Made by a program: the position numbers and the translations under genes | In this document: in pieces, positions 4,346 through 41,820 of the stretch | How the letters are laid out: each line of letters starts with the position of its first letter | How positions within the stretch are numbered: position 1 is the stretch's first letter | Virus record (IMG/VR): IMGVR_UViG_3300045988_177924 | DNA length: 64,000 bases | Strand: one strand, 5' to 3' | Origin: a virus | The notes under the pieces: model-generated | The model's database searches: none | What the model was told of the DNA's origin: nothing | What the model saw: only the letters and a program-made list of their open reading frames with translations

Positions 4346-4915
4346 ATGAAAATTAAAGAAAGCAAAAAGATGTCCCATAAGGACGTATTACAGTTTTTCA
4401 ACACCCTAACCCTCATCGGCACAAGTATGAGAGGTCTCAAAGAAGAGAGCGATGTAGCTCTCACGGCGTTTTACTCACTCATAATAAGTCGCAGCAGTGT
4501 GGTTGCTTACATAACCCGCGCCCTCGCTCCTATTGGGTTAGAGAAATTTATGCCTACACACAAGCTGGCCACTTACATCACCAAAACCATCGACGAGCGT
4601 CTCATGCAGCGCCTGGCGACTTATTCGTGCCAGAAAACAGAATACGACGAAACCAAAGTCTGCGTAGAGAGACGTAGTGAGCTCACTCTTGACGAAGACC
4701 GTTACACCGACAAAAGGAACGAGTCTCTCACGATGCTCTTCTCTAAACGCGCCAAATATAACTTCTGTTATAATGTCATTTGCACTCAGCTCAACAAAAT
4801 AGCTCAAGCGATGGCGATGACGATTGATTACGCCACGATTCTCCACGAGAGTGAGCAGCGACTACTCACGGCGATGGGGAAAGAGAACGAGCCGTTATTC
4901 AGCGTGAAGGACTAA
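4346..4915 (+). CDS. hypothetical protein (189 aa)
   Basis: SD CAGGAGGA. Confidence 0.6.
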   Translation: MKIKESKKMSHKDVLQFFNTLTLIGTSMRGLKEESDVALTAFYSLIISRSSVVAYITRALAPIGLEKFMPTHKLATYITKTIDERLMQRLATYSCQKTEYDETKVCVERRSELTLDEDRYTDKRNESLTMLFSKRAKYNFCYNVICTQLNKIAQAMAMTIDYATILHESEQRLLTAMGKENEPLFSVKD

Positions 4916-4949
4916 ACCACGAACCGGCGGCTAATAGGAGAATTGAATT

Positions 4950-5237
4950 ATGATATTTGGAATAACGGCTACTTCGAACTTTGATTATGGATGCACACAA
5001 GGGGAAGAAGACAGGCAAGTACTTCTTCGACACTACCCCCTTTTAGAAGATCGACTAATAGATGGTTGTATGAGGGCGAAAAGATACAATACCTTGTATC
5101 AACTGATTGAAGTCGACACGTTTGAAGAAATTATGGATTTTGTTAAGAAATATAATCGAATAGTGATTGAAAAACTCGAAGACGACAAAGGGGAAACCAG
5201 ATATGTCATCGAAATCTATGATTATTGGAGAGAGTGA
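4950..5237 (+). CDS. hypothetical protein (95 aa)
   Basis: SD TAGGAGA. Confidence 0.55.
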   Translation: MIFGITATSNFDYGCTQGEEDRQVLLRHYPLLEDRLIDGCMRAKRYNTLYQLIEVDTFEEIMDFVKKYNRIVIEKLEDDKGETRYVIEIYDYWRE

Positions 5238-5308
5238 AACTCGGCAGGTGCTACAGCAATTATAGCACTAGGTAACGACTTAACTTGCTGTAAAAGGAGA
5301 TAACGATT

Positions 5309-5698
5309 ATGAAAATTGGAGCGATTTGGGATGCAAAAGTCATCCATTTGAACTATGTCTTGAGAGGTAAGATGGTGGCCAATGATTCAATGTTGAGTCA
5401 GGAAGCCAATGCAACCACATTGGCTTTCACAATCAATGACGCGGTGTTGACTTCGGGCGAGGAAGACTATATGCCCAAAGTGGGAGACGTGATAACCGTC
5501 GAACTTACCACCAAAGTAATTATGGGCGGCGTTTTTGAGGTTGGCTCAATAAATCTGAGATTGGAGGACGCAGTAATCACCAACATCGACAAGTGCAACA
5601 ACCTGTGTGTGATGGTAAATTTATCAGCGGAACAGTTGACAAAACATCTGACGGACCGTGTGTATGACACGTTTGGAATTAAGAAACATGTGTCATAA
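5309..5698 (+). CDS. hypothetical protein (129 aa)
   Basis: SD AAAGGAGA. Confidence 0.6.
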   Translation: MKIGAIWDAKVIHLNYVLRGKMVANDSMLSQEANATTLAFTINDAVLTSGEEDYMPKVGDVITVELTTKVIMGGVFEVGSINLRLEDAVITNIDKCNNLCVMVNLSAEQLTKHLTDRVYDTFGIKKHVS

Positions 5699-5702
5699 AA
5701 GG

Positions 5703-5731
5703 TTGACAAACGACGACGGCTGGTGTATAAT
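5703..5731 (+). promoter_or_regulatory. sigma-70-type promoter TTGACA-17-TATAAT
   Basis: TTGACA 5703-5708, TATAAT 5726-5731. Confidence 0.75.
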
Positions 5732-5763
5732 GAGAACATAACAGAAAAGGAGATACAAAAAAA

Positions 5764-6222
5764 ATGGCAAAGTTTAGAGTAGGAGATTTGGTGACAATCC
5801 GCGAATGGGACGATATGGCGCAAGAGTACGGCGTCGCTGACAACGGCGACATTAAGGTATGTATGGGTTTCCCCGCATCTGCAAAGATGCTGTGCGGCAA
5901 GGTTGCTCAAATTACCGAGATTGGTCGCGGCGTTCGTCTTAAGCTCGTGAATCCCGTCAAAGCCCCTTATGTATATTTTACAACCGATATGTTGGAGCCT
6001 TTGTCGGCAAAAGGACGTGTTGATGTAGAAATTGGAAGTTACGCGAAGGTGGTAAGAGGTAAGGCGGAAGGTTGCTTTGTCTTAGTCAGCGACGATGGTC
6101 ATGACTACAACGAGGTCGGCGGCACCGTCGTGTTCCCTAAAGAGAGAAGAGGGGAACACTTCCATTTTGAAGATACAGATTTGGAGCCCGTCACCGAAGA
6201 TGTTAATTGGTTTTGTTTATAA
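5764..6222 (+). CDS. hypothetical protein (152 aa)
   Basis: SD AAAGGAGA. Confidence 0.6.
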   Translation: MAKFRVGDLVTIREWDDMAQEYGVADNGDIKVCMGFPASAKMLCGKVAQITEIGRGVRLKLVNPVKAPYVYFTTDMLEPLSAKGRVDVEIGSYAKVVRGKAEGCFVLVSDDGHDYNEVGGTVVFPKERRGEHFHFEDTDLEPVTEDVNWFCL

Positions 6223-27749: not shown

Positions 27750-28343
27750 TTAAAACAACCAAATGTTTCTATGTTTGTTGATGTGTTTGCGGCAGCTCTC
27801 GTCGCCGGTGAAGAGACATTCCTCTTCATTGAGATAATACCATTTGCCTGTTCCCTCTTCTTGTTCGAAGTCAGGATTGATATTCCCTTCTTTGTACATT
27901 GTCACCGTCGTACGGACGGGTTCGAACGTTTGAGGATTTAACATCCAATACCGTTTTGTATAGGATTTGATTTCTTGTCCAGGGACAAGAGTTTGTAATA
28001 AGGCAAATTTTTCTACCTTGTTGCCTTGATATAATTTGACGAGGTCTTCTTCCTCGTAAACTGACACCGCTTTGGTAGGCAGTTCTTCGATTTCGATCTC
28101 ATAGTCATTTCTGCGCATTGACCACCCTTTGCGCAATGCCAGCCATTTGGCTTCTTCCATTGCTGCAGTAGTGTTCCTGCGCGGCAAGGAGTGGAATTCT
28201 TCCACGACGTTTTGAAACACTGTTTCGGTGATGATGTTTTCGTCCCATTCTTCTTGGTTCATCGGATGGGTTGGGGCAACTGGAACTTGTTTTTCTACAT
28301 TGTAGAACGTAGCTTTGACAGTTGCGATAATGTAATTTTTCAT
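27750..28343 (-). CDS. hypothetical protein (197 aa)
   Basis: SD GAAAGGAGAA; preceded by structured leader E1. Confidence 0.6.
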   Translation of the reverse strand: MKNYIIATVKATFYNVEKQVPVAPTHPMNQEEWDENIITETVFQNVVEEFHSLPRRNTTAAMEEAKWLALRKGWSMRRNDYEIEIEELPTKAVSVYEEEDLVKLYQGNKVEKFALLQTLVPGQEIKSYTKRYWMLNPQTFEPVRTTVTMYKEGNINPDFEQEEGTGKWYYLNEEECLFTGDESCRKHINKHRNIWLF

Positions 28344-28490
28344 AATGATTCTCCTTTCTATGCCATTAGTCTTCGATTAGCAAGATTTTTATTTTACGAA
28401 GATGATGCCATTATGAACACCATGAGCGCCACCCTCCTAAGAGGGCAACGGACTTGCACCGTTCACGCTTTCGCGCGGGCCTTGCGGTGA
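28344..28490 (-). ncRNA. conserved structured 5' leader, copy E1
   Basis: minus-strand blocks UAAUCACCGCAAGGCCCGC, ACGG-UGCAAGU-CCGU, GGCGCUCAUGGUG and GGCAUAGAAAGGAGAA are shared with E2; intervening hairpins differ in sequence but not in shape. Confidence 0.45.
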
Positions 28491-28982
28491 TTAACTCTCG
28501 TAAGATTCGAGAGCGTCCTCCAAATAATCAGTTCTTGCTCTTTCGAGCAAGAGTGATTTGGTAAGGGCATTCTTTTTGCCCTTGGTTGCTTTGAGCTCAT
28601 CTTCGGTGAGCGATGCGACAACTGTCGCTTGCGGCGTGAGTAAGACACCTTTCTTATAATCAATATAAGTTTCGGTGTCGATTTCGCTCTCGGCAGAGGT
28701 TACAATCTCATCAACGTTGTAGCCTTTAGTTAGAAGCATGAAACAAGAGGTCATCATGCTTTTTGCCTTATCGCTGTCGCCGGCGCAAACATCGATGCAA
28801 ATCTGCGCGAAGTGCACAGCAGCTTGCTTGTCGGCCTCGCCGTTGTAGCAGAATTTTTCTTTGCTGCCATCGGGAAACTCGATTGTTTCGATGCCGAGGT
28901 TGATATTCCCATCTGCTTTCATTGCGTCGAGGGCGTTGATGATGTTGGGGGTTGATACAGTTTGATTGATTTTAATTGACAT
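28491..28982 (-). CDS. hypothetical protein (163 aa)
   Basis: SD TAGGAGGA. Confidence 0.6.
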   Translation of the reverse strand: MSIKINQTVSTPNIINALDAMKADGNINLGIETIEFPDGSKEKFCYNGEADKQAAVHFAQICIDVCAGDSDKAKSMMTSCFMLLTKGYNVDEIVTSAESEIDTETYIDYKKGVLLTPQATVVASLTEDELKATKGKKNALTKSLLLERARTDYLEDALESYES

Positions 28983-29015
28983 ATATATGTCCTCCTATAT
29001 AATAATATTTTTTAA

Positions 29016-29411
29016 TTAAATGTTTACCACTCTTTCGCAAGCGGTTTTGATTCCGATAGGCATTGACCTATCATAGAATCGATCAGTGTGATCAGCCATT
29101 CGGGTGATCAACGTATAAATTTGATCAAGTTTATTGCAGAAAGGACTACAATAAACTTCAGTCCAGTTATAGGTTCCTCCTGAGAGTTTGCTTCCCGCCG
29201 GCAGCCCACTCGGGGTTTTCTTGGCTATGATGCAAAGATACATATAGCCTTCGGGGGAAAATTGAGCTAAGGAGATTTTCACCTTTTGTTGCTTAAAAGT
29301 CAATAAGACCTGTGAGTTTTCCACACCACTTAACGGGTGTTGTTTGACGACGACTTTGATGTTGTCGTCTTTGTGTTGGTTGATATAGTTTGTTAGGTCG
29401 TGGATAAGCAT
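29016..29411 (-). CDS. hypothetical protein (131 aa)
   Basis: SD AAAGGAGGTG. Confidence 0.6.
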   Translation of the reverse strand: MLIHDLTNYINQHKDDNIKVVVKQHPLSGVENSQVLLTFKQQKVKISLAQFSPEGYMYLCIIAKKTPSGLPAGSKLSGGTYNWTEVYCSPFCNKLDQIYTLITRMADHTDRFYDRSMPIGIKTACERVVNI

Positions 29412-29426
29412 ATCGCTTCACCTCCT

Positions 29427-29555
29427 TTATGTATTGGCTTGCGAGCAGGTTCCCCACTCGCAAGAGCGAGTTGTGCAGTCTTTGCACGGATCGTCTTCTA
29501 TAGTTGCTTCATATTCCTTGAGGTATTCCTCGATGGTGATTTGTTGGTATGGCAT
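29427..29555 (-). CDS. hypothetical Cys-containing micro-protein (42 aa)
   Basis: SD TGGAGG before ATG 29555; below the ORF-track cut-off. Confidence 0.4.
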   Translation of the reverse strand: MPYQQITIEEYLKEYEATIEDDPCKDCTTRSCEWGTCSQANT

Positions 29556-29738
29556 AATAACCTCCAATTAAAAAGTTTTTGTTTTTATATTTAATACCTC
29601 TTCTAAGGTATATAAATATCTTTCGTGGGTAAAAACTACAACGTTAAAGAGTTTCGCCACCGCATAAGCGCGGTGGCGATTGGTGTAGTCTTTTTGCTTA
29701 TTATTGATAAAAAGAGTATAAATTATCATAAACCCTCC

Positions 29739-29924
29739 TTAATCGATATTATCAACAGTGACTTGATATGTCACGTTGATTTTCAGTTGATGTATCAACG
29801 ACATTGAAAGATCATCACCGAGTTCAAATACATTGATTTCCCTCGGTGTTGCCATCGTCATTGTCGCGACGATGACGCCGTTGTTGTTATAGAAAATAAA
29901 ATTATAATGTTTTACATTTTTCAT
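29739..29924 (-). CDS. hypothetical protein (61 aa)
   Basis: SD GAGGAGGAA; ATGA-type overlap with the upstream gene. Confidence 0.5.
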   Translation of the reverse strand: MKNVKHYNFIFYNNNGVIVATMTMATPREINVFELGDDLSMSLIHQLKINVTYQVTVDNID

Positions 29925-30352
29925 TTTGTTATTCCTCCTCTCTCTTTTTTGTAGGCGTCTAACTTTTGTTCGGCGCGTTGGACATCGATGATGGGGTCGC
30001 CAAAATCGTAGTAGGATTCAACAATCCCTTCTTTGCCGATTTCGTACTCATCGATTTCATAACCATATTCGTCAATTGCAATATCAAACCCAAGTGGGGA
30101 TATATAATATTCCTCAAATGAACTTGCTAAATCACTTAGATTTAGATAATATTTGTTTCTCTCTTCTTCAGAAAGAGTGGAACAAAATACTTGTTTCATT
30201 TTCTTGAAAAGATATAAATCTTCCTCAAGAAGATTACGATTGTGTTTGATCCACTCAGTTGCTTGCTCTTTGTCATCAAAGATACAATAAGCAAAGTTTT
30301 GGTTATTTTCACCGTCAAAATAATCAATTTTCGAAATATAAACTTTTTTCAT
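29921..30352 (-). CDS. hypothetical acidic protein (143 aa)
   Basis: SD AAAGGAGGA before ATG 30352. Confidence 0.6.
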   Translation of the reverse strand: MKKVYISKIDYFDGENNQNFAYCIFDDKEQATEWIKHNRNLLEEDLYLFKKMKQVFCSTLSEEERNKYYLNLSDLASSFEEYYISPLGFDIAIDEYGYEIDEYEIGKEGIVESYYDFGDPIIDVQRAEQKLDAYKKERGGITK

Positions 30353-30356
30353 TTTC

Positions 30357-30560
30357 TTAGTCCTCCTTTTCTTTAAGAACGTTGAACGTCCCAACGATAT
30401 TATAATCGTTGATCTTGTTGATTAAGCTGTCCGCCGCCCCCAGGTTGCCCAGAAGCAGTTGTACTTCTGCTGCATCCAGCAAAAGTTGGTCGTAACGGGA
30501 GAGTTGCCTCTCTTCTGCAACTTGATCGAGTTCATCGATCCATGATTTAATATTTTTCAT
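30357..30560 (-). CDS. hypothetical protein (67 aa)
   Basis: SD GAAAGGAGAA before ATG 30560; the longer track ORF has no SD and would run into leader E2. Confidence 0.5.
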   Translation of the reverse strand: MKNIKSWIDELDQVAEERQLSRYDQLLLDAAEVQLLLGNLGAADSLINKINDYNIVGTFNVLKEKED

Positions 30561-30706
30561 AACGGTTTCTCCTTTCCCTGCCATGGGACCCCTAGCAATA
30601 ATAAAGTTTTTCGGGGACGGTGTCGTTATGCCCACCATAAGCGCCGCGTATTTCTACGCATCGGACTTGCACCGATCACCTCCGAGGGGGCGGGCCTTGC
30701 GGTGAT
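30561..30706 (-). ncRNA. conserved structured 5' leader, copy E2
   Basis: see E1; AUCGG-UGCAAGU-CCGAU hairpin co-varies with E1 AACGG/CCGUU. Confidence 0.45.
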
Positions 30707-30949
30707 TTATTTTAGTATTTCGCCGAAATTGTCGGTGACAAGTTGTTTGGCGACATCCGTCAAGTGGTGGATACACTTGCTGTAAGTCTCCGTTTTGCCT
30801 TCGACTTTAGCCCTGTATTCGGGCGTTATGGCGAAGGAAATTTTGGTGGCATTGGACATTTCTTTATCGAGTTGGGTGTTTACCCATATGACAAAATCGT
30901 TGACAAAGCCAACGATTGCCGCGATTTGGTCGGCGGTATAATTTTTCAT
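30707..30949 (-). CDS. hypothetical protein (80 aa)
   Basis: SD AAAGGAGG before ATG 30949. Confidence 0.55.
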   Translation of the reverse strand: MKNYTADQIAAIVGFVNDFVIWVNTQLDKEMSNATKISFAITPEYRAKVEGKTETYSKCIHHLTDVAKQLVTDNFGEILK

Positions 30950-30971
30950 AATAGCCTCCTTTTGCTTGGGG

Positions 30972-31391
30972 TTAGATGTTGCCCCAAACATCTAATTTGT
31001 TATAGTGTGCCTGGCAGGTTCCCCTGCGAGAATGCCCTCCACTATAATAAAACATGCCGTCTCCGGCATATATTTTGCGGCGGAGAAAGTCTTCCTCCAT
31101 TTTGATATTGTGATCTATAACCACAATTTTATTAATTTTAACATTGTTAAAATTAATATAGTAATACACTGGGACCAGTGCAACCTGGTCTCCTTTTTGG
31201 AGAGATGCCAAGGTTTTGGCGTTCTCCTTTTGAAGTTTTTTAATCTTTTCCCCGAGAGGGAAGATTTTGTATTGGACCGGACGAGAGGTCCAATTTTTTA
31301 ACGTGGCTTCTGCTACTTTGCGGACGTTGCCGCGTGTGGCGTTGACGACGATGTCGCCCATTTGTGTTTTAATGATAAATTGTTTTTTCAT
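30972..31391 (-). CDS. hypothetical basic protein (139 aa)
   Basis: SD GAAAGGAGAA; preceded by leader E3. Confidence 0.6.
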   Translation of the reverse strand: MKKQFIIKTQMGDIVVNATRGNVRKVAEATLKNWTSRPVQYKIFPLGEKIKKLQKENAKTLASLQKGDQVALVPVYYYINFNNVKINKIVVIDHNIKMEEDFLRRKIYAGDGMFYYSGGHSRRGTCQAHYNKLDVWGNI

Positions 31392-31761
31392 AGTGTTTCT
31401 CCTTTCCTGGCTAGGGAACCCGATTCGCCATTGTTTAGTTTTGTTTTACGGGTTGCCGAACTATGAACGGCAATGCTGATGGTTTCGGCTCATGCCGTCA
31501 TCAGGCCACGGACTTTTACCGTGACGACCATCTGTCCCGAGCAAGGGTTTAAGCTTACTCGGGACATTGTGTGATTTTTACATATTTTACCTCCCCACCC
31601 CCGCTTGGGTGTATTGTATTTCACGGCTCCTTAATAAGAGAATTGTTCCCACTCACTCGCTTGTGAGCAGTTGAATAAACGTTCCTCTTCCCCTTCGGAG
31701 GGGTAACCTATCTCTCTTAAAGCGGTAAGAGAGCAATTGTGGGACTATATCCCACGACAAC
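31392..31761 (-). ncRNA. conserved structured 5' leader, extended copy E3
   Basis: 3' half aligns with E1/E2 (AAUCACACAAUG, CACGG-UAAAAGU-CCGUG, UUCAUAGU, CCAGGAAAGGAGAA); 5' half adds four more clean hairpins. Confidence 0.45.
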
Positions 31762-32163
31762 TTATAGATTAAAAATTTCTATAAGTTTTTGGCAATTCTC
31801 GCGAGGATTGCGTTTGTCCCATTGCATTGGGACACCTTTATTTTTGTGGTTTTTTATTTCACCACAAAACGTGTGAAAAGATATTTGTATCTTTTCTTGT
31901 GTATTATAAAAATACACTACGCGGGATTTGTTCCCGTTTTGATCAGGCATTTCTACCACATAATAACGGAATTGGCATTCCGTTATTTTTGAAGAATTAA
32001 TAAGGCTTATGGCCTTAATTATTTCTTTATCTTTGAGGGAATACCCCCAAAGTTTTGCGCGTTTGTCGCCTTCAAGGGAAAGGATATTTAATCCTTTCCC
32101 GGCGTCCGACGCTGTTTGTGCCAGACAAATATGTCTGGCAATTTCTTTATTGAGATTAAACAT
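31762..32163 (-). CDS. hypothetical protein (133 aa)
   Basis: SD TAAGGAGG. Confidence 0.6.
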   Translation of the reverse strand: MFNLNKEIARHICLAQTASDAGKGLNILSLEGDKRAKLWGYSLKDKEIIKAISLINSSKITECQFRYYVVEMPDQNGNKSRVVYFYNTQEKIQISFHTFCGEIKNHKNKGVPMQWDKRNPRENCQKLIEIFNL

Positions 32164-32178
32164 ATTGAATTTACCTCC

Positions 32179-32343
32179 TTATTCTTGTGTCAAAGACACA
32201 ATTTTTACAGCGCTGTGGCCGCAAGCCCGCAGTTGTTGCGCGGTTTCTTCAGCACTCTTTCGAGTGATGAAAAAGTTGTTAAAGACCTGCACGGTCTTTG
32301 ACCTGTCGCCGTAAGCGACGTAGTGTATAATCCAAATCTTCAT
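32179..32343 (-). CDS. hypothetical protein (54 aa)
   Basis: SD AAAGGAGGA before ATG 32343; below the ORF-track cut-off. Confidence 0.45.
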   Translation of the reverse strand: MKIWIIHYVAYGDRSKTVQVFNNFFITRKSAEETAQQLRACGHSAVKIVSLTQE

Positions 32344-32357
32344 TAGATTGTCCTCCT

Positions 32358-32657
32358 TTATTTGATGTATTCAGTAAGAACGACGGTGATTTCGCCGTCG
32401 TGTTCGTCTTCATCTTCACAGAAGTAACTGGCAGTTACTCCTTTGATTTTATTGAGGGATTGCGCGACTAACTCAGAGTTATAGAACCAAATGTTGGCAG
32501 GATTTTTGCTTTCAAGCGCCGCTTGAAATACTTCAAAATCCGTAATGTGCATTACGGGTTTCCCAAATGTTTTATATTGCATTTGGATTTTGTTATAGAG
32601 GATATCAGCGATTGTGTCGTTGATAAGCACGGGGTTGTTGTTTTGATTATTTAGCAT
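32358..32657 (-). CDS. hypothetical protein (99 aa)
   Basis: weak SD GGGAAAAGG; first ORF after the long structured region. Confidence 0.55.
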   Translation of the reverse strand: MLNNQNNNPVLINDTIADILYNKIQMQYKTFGKPVMHITDFEVFQAALESKNPANIWFYNSELVAQSLNKIKGVTASYFCEDEDEHDGEITVVLTEYIK

Positions 32658-33499
32658 AAGTTTGCCTTTTCCCTTATCCCTGGGAGCTAGGAGTTATTTT
32701 TGTGCTTTCAGTTCATCTTTCGATGATGCAGAGCCACGACGAGCACGTAAGCACTTGGCTCCATTACTTCTATCCCTTAGACAGTCCTCTCATCCTTGCT
32801 CTTTCTGGTGAGCCCCCTGTCATTTCCGCACCAGGTTTTGCACCCTGGCACGTTTCGGGATATCGGCAATCAGGCTTGCCGCGATTTAGGTTTTGTGCCC
32901 TCTTTGTAAGTGGGACACACGCAGTTGTCTCTGCGCCTGGGGTTGGTTTAACTCCCAGATATACCAATATCAAGTCGTTGCTTGACTCGGAGTGTGCTTA
33001 ACGTAGACTCCTCTACAGGTTAGTTTGTTATTATGTGCAGTCCAACACACCTGAATGTCGTGTTGGGCTTCCAACTTGGTGTGAAAACACACCAACGCTA
33101 ACAAGTACGGCTTTCCCTTTAGCTCCATACTTGTTACGGGAACTGATGAATTTTTCGTTGGCTAGACTACTTACCTCGTTTAAGGTCCCTTCATCTGGGT
33201 TGCTACACTTATTGACGCCAGTGGCAGGCGTATGTTGTTCCCCCGAAAGGAAACATGGGAGTTCCTTGTGGATGGTAAGATTTCATCCCTCTCAAGGGCC
33301 AATCGAGAAGGCCACAAGGAACCATTTATTCCATTCCTGAGAATGGAGTGGGGTGATTAACCCCAACGTGTCAAGTTGTACCGCGAGCGTACTGACTTGA
33401 CACGGAAATTATTTTTTTCGATTGTTGACGGCAGAGCGTCATATTTCCAATCAAAGCTCCTTTTCATCACAGTCTTCACCGTATAAAAAGGCAAGCTAA
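32658..33499 (-). ncRNA. about 0.85 kb ORF-free, G+C-rich, helix-dense region: candidate large structured RNA or long leader
   Basis: no credible ORF; many 5-12-bp helices with G-U pairs only on the minus strand; follows two terminators and a weak promoter. Confidence 0.45.
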
Positions 33500-33505
33500 A
33501 AGTGA

Positions 33506-33534
33506 AATTTACACTTTTTGGAAAGTATTTTCAA
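33506..33534 (-). promoter_or_regulatory. possible promoter TTGAAA-17-TAAATT (reverse strand)
   Basis: TTGAAA at 33534-33529, TAAATT at 33511-33506; weaker than the other promoters. Confidence 0.3.
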
Positions 33535-33602
33535 TCGAAAATACAATTTCAGGACAAAAATATTCATAAACCCATTTTCCCGCCCCAACCCAATTTCCCC
33601 AT

Positions 33603-33634
33603 AAAAAAAAGGCGCCGACATCCGTAGTCAGCGC
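33603..33634 (-). terminator. rho-independent terminator (second of a tandem pair)
   Basis: GCGCUGAC-UACGGAU-GUCGGCGC(C) then U8 on the minus strand. Confidence 0.75.
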
Positions 33635-33654
33635 TCATCTCACCTCACACACAT

Positions 33655-33684
33655 AAAAAAAAGAGGAGCCAGGCACTCCTCTTC
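33655..33684 (-). terminator. rho-independent terminator (first of a tandem pair)
   Basis: AGAGGAG-UGCCUGG-CUCCUCU then U8 on the minus strand, 5 nt after the stop of 33689-33994. Confidence 0.8.
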
Positions 33685-33688
33685 TTAA

Positions 33689-33994
33689 TCAAAACCAGAA
33701 AAAGTCATTCAAGACATCGAACATCGACGGCATCGAACTCTTCCCATTATAACTTATATGGAAAGAGCCGTAGTCCTTGACGAACTCTTTCAGCAACTTT
33801 TGTGCTTCGGCCTCAGCCTCTCGCGCCTTTTTAAAGGCGTCGACGACAGCCTTCGACCTCGTCTCGCGTTCGTTTTTAAGAGCCAGCTGTTTCTCTTCTT
33901 CGGCTTTCTTTTTTGCGACAATAGCCTCTTCGGCTTTTTCGCACTCTTCTTTTGTTTCATAGACCTTGTCGGTCATCTCACTGTAATACTTCAT
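33689..33994 (-). CDS. hypothetical K/E-rich coiled-coil protein (101 aa)
   Basis: SD AAAGGAG. Confidence 0.6.
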   Translation of the reverse strand: MKYYSEMTDKVYETKEECEKAEEAIVAKKKAEEEKQLALKNERETRSKAVVDAFKKAREAEAEAQKLLKEFVKDYGSFHISYNGKSSMPSMFDVLNDFFWF

Positions 33995-34064
33995 ATTGTA
34001 CTCCTTTTGAGCGTTCCTTATCTTCGCTCTAATTTATATTTCCCATCGTTCTCTGCTGACGGGA

Positions 34065-34496
34065 TTATTCACCCAAACCTGCCTGGTCGGTATCGGATTT
34101 TTCTTTTTCAGCCTGCATCATATGCCGAAACTCAGCATCCGTGCGTGAGGCATACTCCCTCACTTTCTGACGTCGACAGCGCTCGTAGACATCAGCGACA
34201 TCCTTCGCCTGTTGTTTGGTATAAAACCACCCTTTGATCAATCCTGTAGTCGTTGACGTTATTGGTCTGAGGACGTACTCGGGGTAAACACCATTATGAT
34301 CATCGAAGTCGTAAACCAGCGGAATATATCGGACAACTTTAGTGTCTTTATCTTTCACCTTTTTATACTTTATTGGGAATGGAAACTCGAGGGTACCATA
34401 ACTTGCCCAACAGGCCACGAGGTAAATCTTTGGCAGCTTAGCGAGCTTGTCTTTGGTTTTTTGATTGTAGGGCAGATGTTTTCTTACTATACACAT
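34065..34496 (-). CDS. hypothetical basic protein (143 aa)
   Basis: SD TAAGGAG. Confidence 0.6.
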   Translation of the reverse strand: MCIVRKHLPYNQKTKDKLAKLPKIYLVACWASYGTLEFPFPIKYKKVKDKDTKVVRYIPLVYDFDDHNGVYPEYVLRPITSTTTGLIKGWFYTKQQAKDVADVYERCRRQKVREYASRTDAEFRHMMQAEKEKSDTDQAGLGE

Positions 34497-34573
34497 GGGG
34501 TTGCTCCTTATTTATATTTGTATTTTTTAAGCGAGAAAACCCGTTGGTCTTTAGCCAATGGGATGAATCGCTA

Positions 34574-35836
34574 TTAATCTTGACTGTTAATGATATTTTG
34601 ACTTATATATAAGCAACTTCTTCTCGCTGAGATTCTGTTACAGTTTGATAATTTTGGTGTCTTATAGCCTCTCGGCATATAACTAAAATCTATCTGATTA
34701 TTAAATATGTCCATAAGTATAGCAAATCCAGAACTCATCTTTCCTTTGATGAAATACTCTTTTCCAAAGTATTTGACCTTATCAAATTTTCTAAATCCTT
34801 GAATCTTACCTACAGGGATTTTTTGTTCTCCACGAACGCCCCTAGTTAATTGATAATTTCCTTTGGATACTCTTCGCTTTTGATAGATAGTGTCATTGAG
34901 CGTGAACTCTTTACCACCGGAAGAGATGACACAAGCATCTATGAAATGGTCTTTTGGTAGATGGAGACTTTCACGATTCGTCTTAGTAACAAATCCAAAA
35001 GTCTCAATAGCGTCAGGATAGACCTTAAGCAACCGACTTCTGATGATACTCATGTGAGTTGCATACTTTAAATTCATCTTTTTAGGTTTTTTGTTTAGTG
35101 CAATTTTCCCACTATGGACTCCGGTGTGGCAATCTTCACATAAGGTTATGAGATTGCTCTCATCATCTGTTCCACTTTGACTTTTAAAGACGATGTGATG
35201 AACCTCTAATCTGGTATGTTTCTTACCGCAAATCTGGCAGGTATAACCATCACGATTAAGTATGGCTTCTCGTCTACTGGCCCATTCATAGTTAAAACCC
35301 TTTTGATACCCCCAGTGTTTGACCTTCTCCAAAATCAAACTTGGATTTTTCATCAGATGTGTATCAAACTGACTGACTTCAAGTACAATCTTTGAAATTG
35401 GGAGTATCTTTTTGCAGAACTCGATTTCATCAATGTGTGCTTGTACCTTGTGCTTGACGGAAGGTGGAAGCCTGTTTAATTTGGTAGAGTTATTACGGTT
35501 GAGGAATCTTGACTCACGATAACGAGTCTTTCTGTTGCGTCTATTCCTACGAGCCTGTCTCCTACTATCCATCTTCGACTTGATATCGTCTCGAAGTTTT
35601 ACATTTGACTGATACAAAACTTTGTTATTGCCAACACAAGCAGTACCAATATATTTTGAGCCTGTATCTTGTCCTAAGACAACGTCTTGTGTATACTCAG
35701 TGGAGTCATAAGTAAGTTGAATTGTAAATGGACATCTCTTTTTGACTTTAGCTTTGCCATCTTTGAGAAGCAATCTTGCGACCACATTCTCGCATGGCAT
35801 TAGCGGTTTCCCACTTTTTGAAATTACATAAACCAT
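34574..35836 (-). CDS. iscB: IscB, OMEGA-family RNA-guided nuclease (RuvC split by HNH) (420 aa)
   Basis: PLMP (SGKPLMPC); RuvC-I VLGQDTGSKYIG; Arg-rich bridge helix RRQARRNRRNRKTRYR; RuvC-II IVLEVSQFD; HNH CQICG..LEVHHIVFKSQSGTDDESNLITLCEDCH; RuvC-III KDHFIDACVI; SD AAGGAGA. Confidence 0.85.
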   Translation of the reverse strand: MVYVISKSGKPLMPCENVVARLLLKDGKAKVKKRCPFTIQLTYDSTEYTQDVVLGQDTGSKYIGTACVGNNKVLYQSNVKLRDDIKSKMDSRRQARRNRRNRKTRYRESRFLNRNNSTKLNRLPPSVKHKVQAHIDEIEFCKKILPISKIVLEVSQFDTHLMKNPSLILEKVKHWGYQKGFNYEWASRREAILNRDGYTCQICGKKHTRLEVHHIVFKSQSGTDDESNLITLCEDCHTGVHSGKIALNKKPKKMNLKYATHMSIIRSRLLKVYPDAIETFGFVTKTNRESLHLPKDHFIDACVISSGGKEFTLNDTIYQKRRVSKGNYQLTRGVRGEQKIPVGKIQGFRKFDKVKYFGKEYFIKGKMSSGFAILMDIFNNQIDFSYMPRGYKTPKLSNCNRISARRSCLYISQNIINSQD

Positions 35837-36161
35837 AAATAAGTCTCCTTAAAATTCTCACTCTTAATGAGTGGTAACGCCTATCTTAACTCTGTTACCA
35901 AGTTAAGAATTGGTCTTCCTTTCGTCAATGTTAATTAGGCTTTTGCGACATACACACAGGGCTTTTCTTACTCCAACCCAACTTAATGTATATCGACAGA
36001 GCGACGGTCTAAGGCGACAACCGAAGGTGTCATGACCTAACTAACGTAGCTCTCATTTCTGAGGCTGAGACTTGTGAACTATTTAATGGAAGCCTACGAG
36101 TTTTTAGCTCATAGGTGGCTCACTAGGATTATTACATCACTTTACTCCTTTATATCTTATA
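35837..36161 (-). ncRNA. candidate omega RNA (HEARO-type) of IscB, including the 5' guide region
   Basis: 325 nt ORF-free stretch between a consensus promoter and the iscB ATG; helices CCUAUGAG/CUCGUAGG, CUCA-GAAA-UGAG, CUUAAC/GUUAAG interleaved with GGUAAC/GUUACC, CACUC/GAGUG. Confidence 0.6.
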
Positions 36162-36168
36162 TATTAAT

Positions 36169-36197
36169 ATTATACACTATTTGATTATAAAAGTCAA
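36169..36197 (-). promoter_or_regulatory. P1: sigma-70-type promoter TTGACT-17-TATAAT (reverse strand) driving omega RNA and iscB
   Basis: TTGACT at 36197-36192, TATAAT at 36174-36169. Confidence 0.75.
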
Positions 36198-36298
36198 CTG
36201 TAGATGACATAATTCTTTAAGATTCTGTGAGTATGTGTGGTAGTTTTTCTTTGGGAAAAATATTTTTTATTTTTTTTTGTATTTTCTGTCATTGGTAG

Positions 36299-36327
36299 TT
36301 GACAAATGGTATTTTTCTGTGTATAAT
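36299..36327 (+). promoter_or_regulatory. P2: sigma-70-type promoter TTGACA-17-TATAAT firing rightward into TA island B
   Basis: TTGACA 36299-36304, TATAAT 36322-36327, then GGGGTGGGTGGTCGGG. Confidence 0.75.
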
Positions 36328-36357
36328 AGGGGTGGGTGGTCGGGAGAATGAGATCAC

Positions 36358-36560
36358 TATTTTTTATTATATTATATTTTAATATATATTTAACATATTA
36401 TATGTTATAATGATAGAATATATGTTATATGATCATATATTATATATATTTAATTATATTTTAATATATTATTACTTTTTTAATATATAATAATATTAAT
36501 TATAATTAATATTATTTATATTAATATTTATAATTATTATATATTTATATATAAATAAGC
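36358..36560. repeat. TA island B: about 200 bp almost purely A/T (83 bp with no G/C at 36476-36558)
   Basis: read directly; no ORF and no terminator hairpin. Confidence 0.9.
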
Positions 36561-36594
36561 AAGATCTTCTTATCTATACCCGCCCACCACCCAA

Positions 36595-36623
36595 ATTATA
36601 ACAACTTTGAAAAGAAAAGTCAA
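36595..36623 (-). promoter_or_regulatory. P3: sigma-70-type promoter TTGACT-17-TATAAT (reverse strand) firing leftward into TA island B
   Basis: TTGACT at 36623-36618, TATAAT at 36600-36595, then GGGTGGTGGGCGGG on the minus strand. Confidence 0.75.
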
Positions 36624-36681
36624 CCTACAATGACACAAAAATAAAAAAAATTTTAAAACTTTACAAAAATGTCATCATATG

Positions 36682-36710
36682 TTGATATTAAATATGATAT
36701 GTGTTATAAT
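36682..36710 (+). promoter_or_regulatory. P4: sigma-70-type promoter TTGATA-17-TATAAT with TGn extended -10
   Basis: TTGATA 36682-36687, TATAAT 36705-36710; followed by a 9-bp hairpin AAGAAAGAG/CTCTTTCTT. Confidence 0.7.
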
Positions 36711-36784
36711 ATAAATATAATAAGAAGAAAGAGAATATCCTCTTTCTTTAGGAATCTATATCACTTCTAAGGAACTACATTATT

Positions 36785-37354
36785 ATGAGCAAACACTTAC
36801 ACCTAATTGTAGAAGACAATGTAATTTTTAATTGTGCGGAGACAATAACCAAAAAACTTAATGAAAAATACAACACTAATTATTCTGTAATCGATTTTTA
36901 CGAAAACAAATTCCAAACGGTCTGTGGTCAAGATCATGATTTCGAAATCATTGATTGTATCAAAAGTCTGAATGTACCTGACTTGCGGATTCGAGAAGGC
37001 GCGGAAGATTTTCTTGATACCATCACAGAACTTGCGGAGAACTGTAAGCTCACTATCGAGATTGAAAGTTATGCTGAAGCTTATAGAACGGCAACAATGG
37101 AAGATGTAGAAAAAATTCGTCTTTTTGGAGACTCGGTTATATATATAGGCAGCGATTACCGTATGTGCGCTAATTATTTAGCTGATATGGTCGTGTTATT
37201 TACTGGCGATGTTGAACATCAGCGTAACCGTGTTGAAGGTAATGAGGAAGATTTTTATATCATACATAACTTTAACGACTTAGAAGCGTTGGTGAAGTTT
37301 TATGCCGATTACCCTGAATTTGTGGGGAACCCTTCGTCGATTATTGAGGAGTAA
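36785..37354 (+). CDS. hypothetical acidic protein (189 aa)
   Basis: ORF track; weak SD; first gene after P4. Confidence 0.55.
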   Translation: MSKHLHLIVEDNVIFNCAETITKKLNEKYNTNYSVIDFYENKFQTVCGQDHDFEIIDCIKSLNVPDLRIREGAEDFLDTITELAENCKLTIEIESYAEAYRTATMEDVEKIRLFGDSVIYIGSDYRMCANYLADMVVLFTGDVEHQRNRVEGNEEDFYIIHNFNDLEALVKFYADYPEFVGNPSSIIEE

Positions 37355-37355
37355 A

Positions 37356-37904
37356 ATGAAAACATTATTTTGTGTACTTGGCAGAAGTGGAACCGGAAAA
37401 GATACAGTCGTTGATCGTGTGTGCCAGCTGACAGGAATGAAGAAAGTGTGTTCTTATACCACGCGCCCCAAGAGAATTAACGAAGGTGACACCCACATTT
37501 TTATTCGACCTGAGGATGTGGATAAATATAAAGATGATATTATTGCGCAGACTGTAATTGGAGATGTGGAATATTTTGCTACAGTTACACAAGTGTTAAA
37601 TAGTGATTTTTATATAATCGATCCTAAAGGGCTTGGAGATTTGTGGAAGTATTGGAATTTCGAAAAACATCCATTAAAAATTGTGGCTGTTTTGATTTCT
37701 GTACCTACGGATGTACAACGTGGATTCTTGATGAAACGGGGCGATGATGTTGAAATTGCCCAGAAGAGAATGGCTGCGGAAGACGCGCAGTTCTGTGAGT
37801 TCGAGAAGGAATATAAAAATAAATACGTTTTGACAAATTTAGATTTGACACAAACGGTGAATGATTTGCTAGATATTATTAAACGCGAAAAAGAGGAAGA
37901 TTAA
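37356..37904 (+). CDS. guanylate-kinase-like P-loop NMP kinase (182 aa)
   Basis: SD GAGGAG before ATG 37356; GRSGTGKDT P-loop and SYTTRPKRINEGDTHIF resembling the gmk TTRxxRxGE signature. Confidence 0.5.
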   Translation: MKTLFCVLGRSGTGKDTVVDRVCQLTGMKKVCSYTTRPKRINEGDTHIFIRPEDVDKYKDDIIAQTVIGDVEYFATVTQVLNSDFYIIDPKGLGDLWKYWNFEKHPLKIVAVLISVPTDVQRGFLMKRGDDVEIAQKRMAAEDAQFCEFEKEYKNKYVLTNLDLTQTVNDLLDIIKREKEED

Positions 37905-37906
37905 GA

Positions 37907-39548
37907 GTGCCTAATTTACAAAACCTATATCAAGTTTTTAAACTTAAATCTAGTTTTATTGTAGAGAACAACTTAAATATAGTTAATTATTCAAAATCTA
38001 AGGCAGCTCGCGATGGAGCGCTGGTATCAATTGGTGATAATCTGGTTTTTCAACAAATCAGAAAATATTATAATGATACCAGAAGTCATCGAGAGATTTT
38101 TAACGATGTCCAACAATTTCGTCGCGCTATAAGAGCCGCGAAGAGAGAGGGACGAACTAAGGAAGCTGGTATTCTTAATCGGTTTTTGACAGATGCGTTG
38201 TTTGTTAAAGATATTATTAACGTTGAAGTCGTGACCAAGAAAGAATATAAAGAATTGGCCAAGAATGGTTTTGACGTTAACGGTATTCATTATGTGAGAT
38301 TTTGTTGTGGTTCGGGACAAATGAGGCGCAACACTATTACCTTTATTAACGAAGCTCTTTATGACACCTTGTACAAAAACCTGATGTGCGGGTTGGACAC
38401 CAAGATTTCAGAAATGAATTTGGCGAAATATCATGCGTATTTTGCGTTGGCGTTTTCAAGTGTTATGTGGGTGCGAACTCCGAGGGTATGCGTAGTTAAG
38501 GATTTCTTTAATGTGGTGAAGGATCAATCGGTTGATTGGATTTGCCCCAATCCCGAGACTGGGAAAAAACAGATTAAAGAAAGAATAATGGATATCGAGT
38601 TAAACTGCGCTGATGGACAGGGGTTGATAGATCCTAAGTTTGCGGCGCTGTGGGCAGAAGATATGAATTTATCATATACGCCGTCGTCGTTCGTTGTCCG
38701 TAGCGTTTTTGTGAAGGGGTGCTTGGTTCCATTTGATTTTCGAGAATTTGGAGCTGTACACGGTATTGACTCAATTCGTGACCGGTGGGGAATCTCGCAT
38801 AGGTTAGAGGATATTGATGTTATATTGAGTGAATCTCAATTCAAGATGTATAAATATTATGTATCTTGGTATGAATATCAAAAGTATGTAGATGCGGCTG
38901 GTATTCAGTGGGGAGTTGCGAGATATAATAAAAAGTACGATGACGAATATGTGCTGGCTAATTATCAATATCTGCAAGTGTTGGATATCAATAAGGATGA
39001 TATTCTGGAATTGATTCAACCGACGATTGATTGGATTAAAAAGATTTGTTCAGGTGACCAATTGTATACAATGCTGTATATGTTGGGTTGCAAGGGCGAA
39101 CAGGTCAGTTTTAAAGAGCTGTACAATGGAGCGCAAAGCACGGCGTTGAGGGCTATTATTAAAAACCCGATAATGTTGGAAGACGCTCATGTACAGAAGA
39201 AAATATATCGCAATATTGCTGAGACGATAAACAAGGCGAAGATTGGTAAGATATGGGTGAGAGGAAATTATAGTTTTATGATTTCCGATCCCGTGGCACA
39301 GTGCCAATCGGCGCTTGGGTTGGAACCGGTGGGGTTAATTGGGCCTGACCAAGTGTATTCAAATTTCTGGAGGCAGCGAAGTGTGGGTTGTGTTGACCTG
39401 TGCCGCAGCCCGATGATTGACTCGCACGAACACAACCCTTGTAAAGTAGTATCGTCCGAAGATATGGATTATTGGTATCAATATATTAAGAGTGGAATCA
39501 TTTATAGTATATATGATACTTCAACATTACGACACTCCGATAGTGACT
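37907..39548 (+). CDS. YonO/RdRP-like single-subunit RNA polymerase, exon 1 (spliced product about 957 aa)
   Basis: GTG start with SD AGAGGAAG; ADGQGLID (RdRP-family DGxGxI), CRSPMIDSHEHNPCKVV; ends ..HSDSD then one nt of the next codon. Confidence 0.55.
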
Positions 39549-40588
39549 TAACATAATGGGTCCGTCGGATGGTAACATTCGATTGCTACTCAGTGAACCT
39601 GGCAATCCAGGGTGTGGGATAAAATCCTGCTAACAGTAAAAATCGTAAGTTTTGTTGGTCGGCCTGGAGAGAAATGCCGACAGAAGAAAAAGAATTCTAT
39701 GTCTATGAATGGATAAACAAAGACACGGGAGAGATTTTCTACGTAGGGAAAGGTAGTGGTTATCGTTGGAAACGTAAAACCGCCAGCTCTCGAAACAGAT
39801 ATTTCAATCGTTATGTCCAAAAATATCCAAATTGTGAACCTCGAAAAGTTTATGAAAATTTAACTGAAGAAGAGGCTTACAACAAAGAGCGAGAATTAAT
39901 AGCCGAATATAAAGCACAAGGCGTTCAGCTGGTTAACTTCGACGAAGGAGGACGACGAGGTGGACGCTCACCTGGAAAGCTAAATGGTATGTATGGGAAA
40001 ACACATACACCAGAAGCTCGAAAGAAAATAAGCGAAGCCAATTCCGATGGCCACAATGCGGGAATCAACAATACTCAATATGGAATTAGTCCAAGAGAGC
40101 GTATGAGTCCTGCGATATACGAGCAGTGGCGTACGGCACACAAGAAAGTAGTTGGTGCAGCAAATCCAAATTGCCATCATACAATTTTGTTTAATCTTGA
40201 ACATGAGATTGTGAAAGAGTTTGAATATACGATTGAATGTGCGCATTTTTTGGAAGAGCAAGAGCATTTAACTAATGGAATTGAGAATATTCGCTCGCAA
40301 ATCAAATATTACAGCAATACAGGACACGTTATGTTCAATAAGTATTATGTAAAAGTGATTCGGCCAACAAAACAAGACAATACTGTGCCAAGCCTCGTGA
40401 AAGAGGAAGGTTAAACGACTACCGAAAGCATATCAAGCGAGAAAAACGTTTGAAAAGAAGCAAGTAGGGTAGAGAACGGTGCAAATCCGGTTCTCGAAGT
40501 GCTGAGGGAACTATGAACGGTAAAAGAACATAGCTCTAAGAGATAGTCTACTCCCCTAATAAATATCGGGAAACCGAGGGTATAAAGG
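39549..40588 (+). mobile_element. group I intron (1040 nt) carrying a GIY-YIG homing endonuclease ORF
   Basis: P1 exon GACU paired with intron GGUC, with U.G at the splice site; core AACUAU/AUAGU(C)U (P7) inside R/S-like elements GGGAACUAUGAACGG and AAGAGAUAGUCUAC; terminal G at 40588; splicing restores the frame. Confidence 0.75.
39674..40414 (+). CDS. GIY-YIG homing endonuclease with NUMOD3-like repeats (246 aa)
   Basis: FYVYEWINKDTGEIFYVGKGSGYR ... NKERELI (GIY-YIG module); GMYGKTHTPEARKKISEA (NUMOD3-like). Confidence 0.8.
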   Translation: MPTEEKEFYVYEWINKDTGEIFYVGKGSGYRWKRKTASSRNRYFNRYVQKYPNCEPRKVYENLTEEEAYNKERELIAEYKAQGVQLVNFDEGGRRGGRSPGKLNGMYGKTHTPEARKKISEANSDGHNAGINNTQYGISPRERMSPAIYEQWRTAHKKVVGAANPNCHHTILFNLEHEIVKEFEYTIECAHFLEEQEHLTNGIENIRSQIKYYSNTGHVMFNKYYVKVIRPTKQDNTVPSLVKEEG

Positions 40589-41820
40589 TTGACGGAGATG
40601 TAGTAATGTCCACGGATAATAAAATCTTTATCAAGGGTGCGCAAAAATGGCACAATGTCATCACATATGAGAAAGGTGCGGTGCCGGTTCAGAAGATTTG
40701 TTTAAAGAATTCAATCGCGACCGATATTCGCGGCTTGGGAACTGGGGTTGGAGGTTTTTCTAACTGCGCAACAATAATGCACGCAATGAAGGGAATTTTC
40801 CAAAAAGACACCCAAAAAGAACAAAGAGACGAACTCACTTTGCGTATTAAATTACTTCGAGAAATTGTTGGTCAAGAAATTGATAGAATTAAAGGAACAG
40901 CCGCGCCGGAGCTGCCAAAAGAGTGGAAAAAATTCATCCGAATTAATGATGATGACACTGATGCGGTTAAGGCTGATAAATATAAAAGAAATTCGATGGT
41001 TATTTCTAAAAAACCCTATTTCTTTAGATATTTATATCCAGAGCTAAACCAACAGTTCAAGCAATACGAAAACAGTTACAATATGGCGTCCAAAAACATG
41101 TTTGGTATTAAATTTAAAAAGCTTTTAACCAAACCTAATAAGTCAGAAGACGAGATGAATTTGGTACGCCGTTATCAAAAGTATTCGCCGCTAATCACCG
41201 CACCGTGCATAATGAATATATTGTGTAAGGAATTTGAAAATGTCGATTTTGATATTAATTTCAATAAAAACGCGGTAAGTATGTTGCCTACCTTTGAGGA
41301 TTGTTTTGAATTTGATCAAGAACGGTTTGCTATTGTTAAAGATTTGTATCGCAAATATACAGCGCGTAAACAAGTAAAAACCTTGGAGAGTATTGTTGAT
41401 AATATTGATTTACCGAATCGTGACGAATATGATGAGATTAGATTCGGGGCAATGACATTTATCAGAACGGAAATTCAAGAGGCGATTGAGTCTGCGTCGT
41501 TCAGTGGCAAAGAATTGCTTTACTACTGCCATTGTTTATCAAAAGAATACAAACAGTTTAATTGGGATTTTGCTTGGGACATTTTAGACGAAAGCGTGTT
41601 GGATTTAATCCCTCGTGGAATTGTTCAGATTCCCGTAAAAAATGAGACTGGATTTGAATACCTTGGTAATCGATACACTTTACAAGTAATTCACGAAGAT
41701 CGCGTCAGCGAGTTGTGTGATGATGACGATTGGAATCAAACGGCGTGGGAAGAAATTTTGGGGCAAGATTTAGATTTTGACTTCGATGCTGATAACTTAT
41801 TTGGAGGCGATGACGTATGA
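40589..41820 (+). CDS. YonO/RdRP-like RNA polymerase, exon 2
   Basis: reading frame open from 40589 (tt gac gga gat ..); junction gives SDFDGDVVMSTDNK. Confidence 0.55.

Follow-up and report, generated by a model that had tools for sequence, protein, structure and literature searches.

A 64,000-nucleotide (nt) stretch of phage DNA (IMG/VR record IMGVR_UViG_3300045988_177924; the whole stretch is referred to as the window) carries a transposon-like element that consists of an omega RNA and the gene for IscB, the presumed ancestor of Cas9. On balance we favour the explanation that this is an ISC-type element placed behind a phage early promoter and active in RNA-guided homing into, or exclusion of, sibling phages that lack IscB. 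The protein is a member of the IscB family of RNA-guided nucleases, for which cleavage itself is predicted, and the leader of its gene is, from its fit to the Rfam model, a HEARO/omega RNA. The window belongs to a phage, with terminase, portal, exonuclease and tail-fibre proteins recognized among its products (PHROGs). The exact IscB protein is present on 16 metagenome contigs, the longest of which is 139,554 bp (ENA ERZ1745419 NODE_45), and the sibling contigs are from human-gut assemblies; the phage that hosts the element appears to be a virulent-looking virus of roughly 139.5 kb from gut metagenomes.

The putative target site in sibling phages

Seven sibling contigs lack the element (IMG/VR 3300045988_171839, _172055 and _150479, ULWT01073799, ERZ1673738 NODE-1099, ULPC01031719 and OIEN01000684), and their flanks are 92-98 % identical to the window. 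Homology runs to position 36124, stops, and resumes at 34512-34509 (by eye at 34516 in the comparison with L006; L numbers are our handles for the sequences compared). The 18 nt at 36124-36141 of the minus strand, AGTGATGTAATAATCCTA, are identical in six of the seven siblings, the first mismatch being at position 19, and _150479 has a T to C change at position 8 and retains the other 17 nt. In all seven this match is directly followed by ATTAAA, such that the sibling site reads ...AGTGATGTAATAATCCTA and then ATTAAATA, and in the window the same 18 nt run into the omega-RNA scaffold, beginning GTGAGC. A preliminary description of this DNA, made without database searches, had proposed, as one of two options, that the guide is flanking phage DNA and that genomes free of the insertion sequence (IS) are its target. 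The guide stretch does lie outside the element, which starts at 36123, and is kept in the siblings; these exist, and they carry both the guide match and ATTAAA.

No other match to the guide is found in the window at up to three mismatches. A search of metagenomes with a 17-mer of the guide returned 60 matches, of which 54 are in unrelated environmental contigs, about the estimated chance number, and they provide no evidence of a host target; three viral matches in unrelated contexts are also at about chance level. The only biologically coherent matches are those at the homologous site of the sibling phages.

The sequence that follows the guide match can be compared with the 3' flanks of related copies of the element. 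There are 11 such sequences, from ten insertion sites and the sibling target, and every one has A at position +1 and either A or T at position +3. The flanks are ATATAA in the window, ATAAAG at the empty L019 site (described below), and otherwise ATTCAA, AATTCT, AATAAT, AGAAAA, AGAGTT, AAATGA, ATAAGT and AGAATT. The sibling ATTAAA fits this pattern of the clade, and on the other strand it reads TTAAT, which the TTCAT and TTTAT motifs of Geobacillus elements resemble (Meers et al., PMC10055086).

At least two further IscB insertions segregate in the phage population. One is at the L019 site, filled in sibling _172055 (where the window site is empty) and empty in five contigs. The other is a different IscB in the sibling L012 (IMG/VR 3300045988_176671), located at 4541-5776 of that contig, with 43 % protein identity and a HEARO match of 140.5 bits; it follows the homologue of the 404-aa gene, at a place corresponding to just after window position 41825, and the window is without it. 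The window is not a perfect target for this second IscB, as the last 7 nt of that guide differ.

IscB and its omega RNA

The 420-aa open reading frame (ORF) matches the Pfam families RRXRR (198.6 bits, residues 2-180) and HNH (50.3 bits, residues 200-242), and scores 336.7 bits, against a cut-off of 175, with the NCBIfam equivalog model NF040563 (guided_IscB), which covers residues 2-304. When the PDB was searched using phmmer, the best match was to OgeuIscB (E-value about 1e-44), followed by other IscBs. The catalytic residues align with those of OgeuIscB, namely the RuvC-I D, the RuvC-II E, the HH..N..H of the HNH domain and the RuvC-III H..D, the corresponding RuvC motifs of the window protein and OgeuIscB being LGQDTG and LGIDPG, IVLEVS and VVLELN, and PKDHFIDA and PKDHYLDA. 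The HNH domain is inserted between RuvC-II and RuvC-III, and its CQIC...HH...N...CEDCH pattern aligns with the catalytic His and the Cys/His zinc ligands of OgeuIscB. Nearer the N-terminus are a PLMP motif (SGKPLMPC) and an Arg-rich bridge helix (RRQARRNRRNRKTRYR), and residues 1-110 align with residues 3-115 of OgeuIscB. The motifs listed in the preliminary description, and its statement that no catalytic residue is missing, thus agree with the alignment, and the profile search confirms the assignment to IscB. A CRISPR association (type II CRISPR-Cas9) was considered and rejected, since no spaced direct-repeat array is present in 31000-39000 and no cas1 or cas2 family was found in a Pfam scan of the window; a Cas9d model gave 37 bits with the IscB ORF against 375, far below its cut-off.

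The leader matches HEARO (RF02033) over the full length of the model at 35910..36123 of the minus strand, with 94.6 bits against a gathering score of 83. Its 3' extension (35837-35909) contains pseudoknot-like CUUAAC/GUUAAG and GGUAAC/GUUACC helices and an ACUC/GAGU hairpin, as well as the iscB ribosome-binding site, AAGGAG, at 35850-35845. The five helices of the preliminary description were scored in 16 homologous leaders, whose proteins are 45-92 % identical. Overall, 81.6 % of cells pair, compared with 31-40 % when the partners are slid by one to three columns, and changes on both sides are seen in 22 of the 31 pairs, a number reached in none of 500 shuffles. Covariation thus upholds the set as a whole, strongly for the first three helices and moderately for the last hairpin, but the pseudoknot arm GGUAAC/GUUACC is conserved and nearly invariant, and hardly covaries. 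The minimum free energy of the leader has a z-score of -3.2 relative to shuffled sequences, and there is no sense-strand ORF of 40 or more aa, as had been noted for this structured leader at the outset.

Both components are under strong constraint. The ratio of non-synonymous to synonymous substitution rates (dN/dS) between the window iscB and other phage-borne copies is 0.09-0.12 (0.08-0.13 for all copy pairs, with dS of 0.35-0.52), and the non-coding 287-nt scaffold is 92-96 % identical among phage-borne copies at the same coding dS.

Ends and copies of the element

IscBs that are 89-92 % identical to that of the window are found in differing phage contexts, including a replication module (L001/L019), a position between tail genes (L003), an NrdD/SPbeta-like region (L005/L128) and other sites (L018, L020 and L130). 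The DNA homology of the approximately 90 %-identical copies starts exactly at 36123, where GTGAGCCACC corresponds to position 1 of the HEARO model, and ends at ...CTCGCTTAAAAAATAYAA, window position 34518; both ends are common to the window, L001/L019, L003, L005/L128, L018, L020 and L130, and copies are present at eight or more different sites. The left end (LE) has an imperfect hairpin at 34562-34540, CCCATTGG-CTAAAGA-CCAACGGG, and the terminal sequence ...CTCGCTTAAAAAATACAA, and is conserved in L001, L005, L018, L019, L020, L128 and L130; in L003 the hairpin is deleted. The right end (RE) has the hairpin CCUAUGAG/CUCGUAGG.

The L019 site, for which clean filled and empty versions are both available, places the two ends with no more than 2 nt of ambiguity. 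The empty site, in L039, L040, L041, L043 and L044, reads ...GGCTTTTGAAG directly followed by ATAAAGTTAG, and the filled site, in L019 and L042, reads ...GAAG, then the element from GTGAGCC to GATAG, then ACAAGGTTAG. There is no target-site duplication beyond the ambiguity, and there are no terminal inverted repeats. The two base differences in the 3' flank of this site are both synonymous. We note that the copy of this site (a 92 %-identical IscB; L001 11271-14633, and L019/L042) lies in a RecD2-like helicase gene, within its first 15 codons, and the ORF of that gene now begins inside the transposon end, so that an element-encoded N-terminus stands in place of the native one.

Among the 94 window ORFs of 70 or more aa there is no Y1 transposase or TnpB family member, TnpA acting in trans not having been sought beyond the window, and the element is for this reason classed as non-autonomous, as are most of its kind; about 98 % of iscB loci lack TnpA (Meers et al., PMC10055086). 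TnpA remnants are present directly after iscB in L127 (IscB 90 % identical) and in Clostridium phage c-st, and the lineage therefore descends from autonomous elements. The earlier suggestion of a non-autonomous IS riding the phage is in keeping with ends shared by copies at other sites and with the lack of TnpA in the 64 kb, and comparison with those copies and with insertion-free relatives has now defined both the element ends and the guide. The features of the locus are listed in Table 1.

Table 1. Positions of the features of the IscB locus in the window
Feature	Position	Strand	Remarks
Promoter, TTGACT-17-TATAAT	36169..36197	-	Phage DNA outside the element; host-type (sigma-70/sigma-A-like)
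Predicted 5' leader of the transcript	36124..36161	-	Phage DNA; the guide is its 3' part
Whole element, non-autonomous IS200/IS605-type (ISC)	34518..36123	-	1,606 bp; in iscB sense RE/omega RNA, iscB, LE
Omega-RNA scaffold	35837..36123	-	287 nt; HEARO match plus 3' extension
iscB	34574..35836	-	420 aa; in order PLMP, RuvC-I, Arg-rich bridge helix, RuvC-II, HNH, RuvC-III, C-terminal domain
LE (TnpA convention), downstream transposon end	34518..34573	-	56 nt; subterminal hairpin
3' flank ATATAA	34512..34517	-	Sequence at the TAM (target-adjacent motif) position of the canonical donor joint
Rest of the unit	33612..34496	-	143-aa gene (34065-34496), 101-aa gene (33689-33994), two terminator-like hairpins

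Promoter and transcription unit

The promoter seen in the preliminary description is present, with 11 of 12 matches in a promoter scan, but it belongs to the phage rather than to the element. Its -10 box is 45 nt outside the element, and the same promoter is found in the IscB-free siblings L006, L007 and L009. The possibility that it is part of the element is ruled out, as the IscB-free siblings keep both promoter and leader. A phage-owned promoter is what would be expected, since transcription of an IscB guide has to begin beyond the IS (Meers et al., PMC10055086), and selection for insertion into transcribed sites was inferred by the same authors. Sense promoters with at least 10 of 12 matches within 150 nt upstream are found at 6 of 19 insertion sites and for five of the six closest copies, compared with 7 % of background windows, and in five copies the -10 box is 28-46 nt from the element. 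A common promoter context, GTCACRAAMGNTTGACA, is found upstream of the IscB elements of L005, L018, L020 and L128, in which a conserved upstream box is fused to the -35 hexamer.

From the position of the -10 box we infer that transcription starts at about 36161. The unit looks short, comprising the omega RNA, iscB, the 143-aa gene and the 101-aa gene, after which there are terminator-like hairpins at 33686-33658 and 33634-33612, and the former view of IscB as the first gene of a long leftward operon is accordingly not sustained. Family searches with the products of the 143-aa and 101-aa genes gave no informative match. In the region of about 1 kb directly past the hairpins (32658-33688), no leftward gene is called and Rfam gives no match.

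The cassette in place of the element

The window site did not arise by clean insertion, since the siblings have 251-1539 bp between the break points: 251-265 bp with one small ORF in L007, L061 and L073, 1,342 bp in L006, including a paralogue of the 143-aa gene, and 1,539 bp in L009. The present order in the window is promoter leader, element, 143-aa gene. Its 3' flank, ATATAAATAAGGAG, resembles TTATAAACAATAAGGAG of L006, just upstream of the ribosome-binding site of the 143-aa gene, and the downstream end therefore seems to be in its original context, with a cassette missing upstream of the element. One possible route is a deletion beside the element that stopped precisely at the transposon end, and another is a short ancestor not yet sampled; a third, in which the right end was joined to the TTAAT site by an intramolecular reaction of TnpA type, is a speculation.

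Proposed mechanism and alternatives

In the mechanism that we propose, host RNA polymerase would start at about 36161 and produce one RNA containing the 5' guide, the omega-RNA scaffold and the iscB message. The complex of IscB and omega RNA would cut co-infecting sibling genomes that carry the guide match and the TAM, and the phage's own copy would be spared because its protospacer is followed by the scaffold GTGAGC and there is no TAM. Repair of the break would draw on the IscB-bearing genome, with homology provided by the flanks (upstream of 36124 and, on the other side, downstream of about 34516), and would put the element in the place of the sibling cassette. Between phages, this would amount to RNA-guided 'non-restorative' homing or to marker exclusion. 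Were the element excised by TnpA in trans, the donor joint, AATCCTA followed by ATATAA, would be cut by the same complex.

Several considerations weigh against this explanation. The TAM is a candidate drawn from one clean filled/empty pair (ATAAAG) together with flank statistics in AT-rich DNA, since a search of viral contigs for the empty sites of the L005, L003 and L020 insertions returned none, or only the filled copy. At 38 nt, the predicted leader exceeds the guides of studied IscBs, which are roughly 16-20 nt. Residues 339-420 at the C-terminus, the predicted TAM-reading domain, did not align with any solved IscB in a profile search of the PDB, although this region is conserved among relatives, and an AlphaFold2 model built from 25 close homologues is unusable (mean predicted local distance difference test score of 46). 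The cassette presents two further difficulties: the 251-1539 bp of the siblings call for one or more additional events (for instance a deletion beside the element, or a short ancestor not yet sampled), and a sibling that had been cut could be repaired only by resection through a heterologous cassette. The mechanism also supposes that the two phage variants meet in the same cell, and cleavage, expression and homing are all predictions from sequence.

It seems unlikely that the element serves only to maintain a transposon, with a Y1 TnpA acting in trans (from the host or the remaining 75 kb of the phage), IscB re-cutting the donor joint in restorative homing, and the sibling match being a by-product of shared ancestry. 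Such a role has been demonstrated for GstIscB (Meers et al., PMC10055086), and it accords with the intact transposon ends, the TAM-like 3' flank ATATAA (by which the donor joint would also be a target), the TnpA remnants adjoining close relatives and the presence of the same element at many sites. However, no TnpA was found in the 64 kb, and a lytic-type phage has scant time for repeated rounds of excision and repair. Whatever the history of the element, moreover, the sibling allele would be a perfect target, and restorative and non-restorative homing are not exclusive.

Similar doubt attaches to a domesticated phage weapon, that is, an immobile element that the phage keeps for superinfection exclusion, as a means of eliminating the genomes of sibling competitors, whether or not the element is also copied. 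The retention of both transposon ends and of the LE hairpin, and the near-identical elements at many sites in related phages, as expected of a selfish mobile element, make this improbable, even though the element is directly under a strong early-type promoter in place of the first early gene or genes of the siblings, the identical protein is on 16 contigs, purifying selection is strong and TnpA is lacking. The molecular action would in any case be that of the homing or exclusion we favour, and only the level of selection differs.

That the element is an inactive passenger, a recent IS with a chance phage leader as its guide and without cleavage (through poor expression, an invalid TAM or a short infection cycle), is quite improbable given a dN/dS of about 0.1, a scaffold 92-96 % identical at a coding dS of about 0.45, a full set of catalytic residues, and insertion sites enriched downstream of promoters. 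In its favour are the putative nature of the TAM, the leader longer than known guides, and the L020 copy, which is so near its promoter that a guide would be absent. Domesticated nuclease-dead relatives of TnpB have been described (bioRxiv 10.1101/2023.11.30.569447), but we consider it very improbable that the complex is a TldR-like RNA-guided repressor, or that the guide is directed at host DNA or another mobile element, since there is no direct support for either, the catalytic residues are intact, and the guide matches other than the sibling homologous site are near the estimated chance number.

Returning to homing among siblings, it is possible, though we hold this more tentatively, that the locus is a natural RNA-guided gene drive among co-circulating human-gut phages, in which the leader of the promoter would be the guide, the leader-plus-cassette of the siblings would be cut and the cassette overwritten. 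The upstream break point is the transposon end and is next to the TAM-like TTAAT, and TnpA-type adjacent deletions could re-program the guide; if true, new targets could in this way be gained simply, with no need to acquire spacers.

Relation to known systems

The locus is a natural example of the known IscB/omega-RNA kind and not of a new kind. It resembles the ISC elements of Geobacillus (ISGst5 IscB; Meers et al., 2023) and OgeuIscB (PDB 7UTN and 7XHT) in domain order and catalytic residues, in having a HEARO-type omega RNA directly upstream, with the scaffold from the transposon end and the guide from flanking DNA, and in the outside promoter, the AT-rich flanking motif and the lack of TnpA in most copies. 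It differs in that the element is in a phage and not a chromosome, the uncut allele is in sibling phages rather than on a sister chromosome, and that allele has a different gene cassette at the position of the element; compared with OgeuIscB, the protein is of low identity and its C-terminal domain is unalignable.

The view that no such phage locus had been characterized was overstated as to novelty, and phage-borne IscB has precedent. IscB homologues are present in 123 deposited phage records (tblastn), most of them labelled 'HNH endonuclease'. Clostridium phage c-st has HEARO (140 bits) and an IscB (CST143; 380 bits) adjoined by a truncated IS200 TnpA, which the window element lacks, and an 'HNH endonuclease' of a Staphylococcus Silviavirus phage scores 277 bits as IscB, HEARO having been noted in Silviavirus phages (PMC13346280); the c-st and Silviavirus proteins are 31-40 % identical to the window IscB. 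None of these has been studied functionally, and we found no functional study or guide-target analysis of a phage IscB in the literature searched. RAGATH-18 RNAs, which are TnpB-type guide RNAs, are found at L018 4060-4120 and L124 (phage c-st) 179-239, and a TnpB gene at L001 2638-3732, all within a few kb of IscB, and elements of both OMEGA kinds (named for obligate mobile element-guided activity) therefore accumulate in these phages.

To our knowledge, the sole demonstrated natural role of IscB so far is keeping its transposon in the bacterial chromosome, and OMEGA-driven spread between co-infecting phages is a proposal on paper, such spread having been shown only for TnpB on plasmids. The experiments on TnpB-driven spread of IS605 in plasmid populations are reported in PMC11870625; the process is named 'transposon non-restorative homing' in PMC13565253, and a 2026 review proposes it for co-infecting phages and plasmids. 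As proposed here, the window element is like TnpB/IS605 on plasmids in that the copy of a multicopy replicon without the IS is cut by an OMEGA nuclease and acquires the IS on repair, with no need for TnpA; it differs in that it concerns IscB on phages and is inferred from natural filled and empty alleles, whereas the plasmid work is experimental. The proposed population behaviour is also like that of the free-standing homing endonucleases of phage T4, SegF/SegB and Mob (intronless homing and marker exclusion), with a nuclease gene between conserved phage genes cutting the allele of a co-infecting relative and being copied in together with flanking DNA. Unlike those enzymes, recognition would be by an RNA guide and a short TAM and not by a long site read by protein, self-protection would come from an insertion that parts the guide match from the TAM, and the element has transposon ends and is able to change sites.

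The locus adds a natural set of alleles, filled and empty, in which guide and target correspond exactly, and provides a concrete natural test case with an 18-nt guide match, a candidate TAM, a clear distinction of self from non-self and a second segregating IscB insertion. It also illustrates a route of guide transcription in phages, with elements placed 28-46 nt behind strong promoters, and enlarges the set of potential editors for testing by a compact IscB whose omega RNA is well defined.

Other features of the phage and its relatives

No match to the locus was found by megablast against 50,697 deposited phages, and there is therefore no annotated close relative. A scan of genome contigs with the IscB protein found only a distant Desulfovibrionaceae metagenome-assembled genome (46 % identity) and gave no clue to the host.

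The segment 39550-40588 (1,039 bp) is missing in the siblings L006, L033 and L061, and its core, 39641-40378 (738 bp), is missing in L012, L009 and L101. It interrupts a gene for an RNA-dependent RNA polymerase-like (PF05183, YonO-type) RNA polymerase, which is apparently split into 37907-39556 and 40606-41820, and carries a 246-aa ORF (39674-40414) with a NUMOD3 homing-endonuclease motif. The segment looks like an intron or other mobile insertion, although an Rfam E-value scan of 28000-41000 revealed no group I intron model at this position.

About 0.8 kb downstream of a 78 %-identical IscB there is a 352-aa radical-SAM gene, which differs between L114/L117/L120 and L115/L116/L118 in being intact or split into ORFs of 66 and 173 aa. 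The leftward gene block of the window also contains two twister-sister self-cleaving ribozymes (Rfam RF02681) on the minus strand, at 28413-28492 and 30628-30707, which score 71 and 54.5 bits against a gathering score of 34, each abutting or just downstream of a small ORF.

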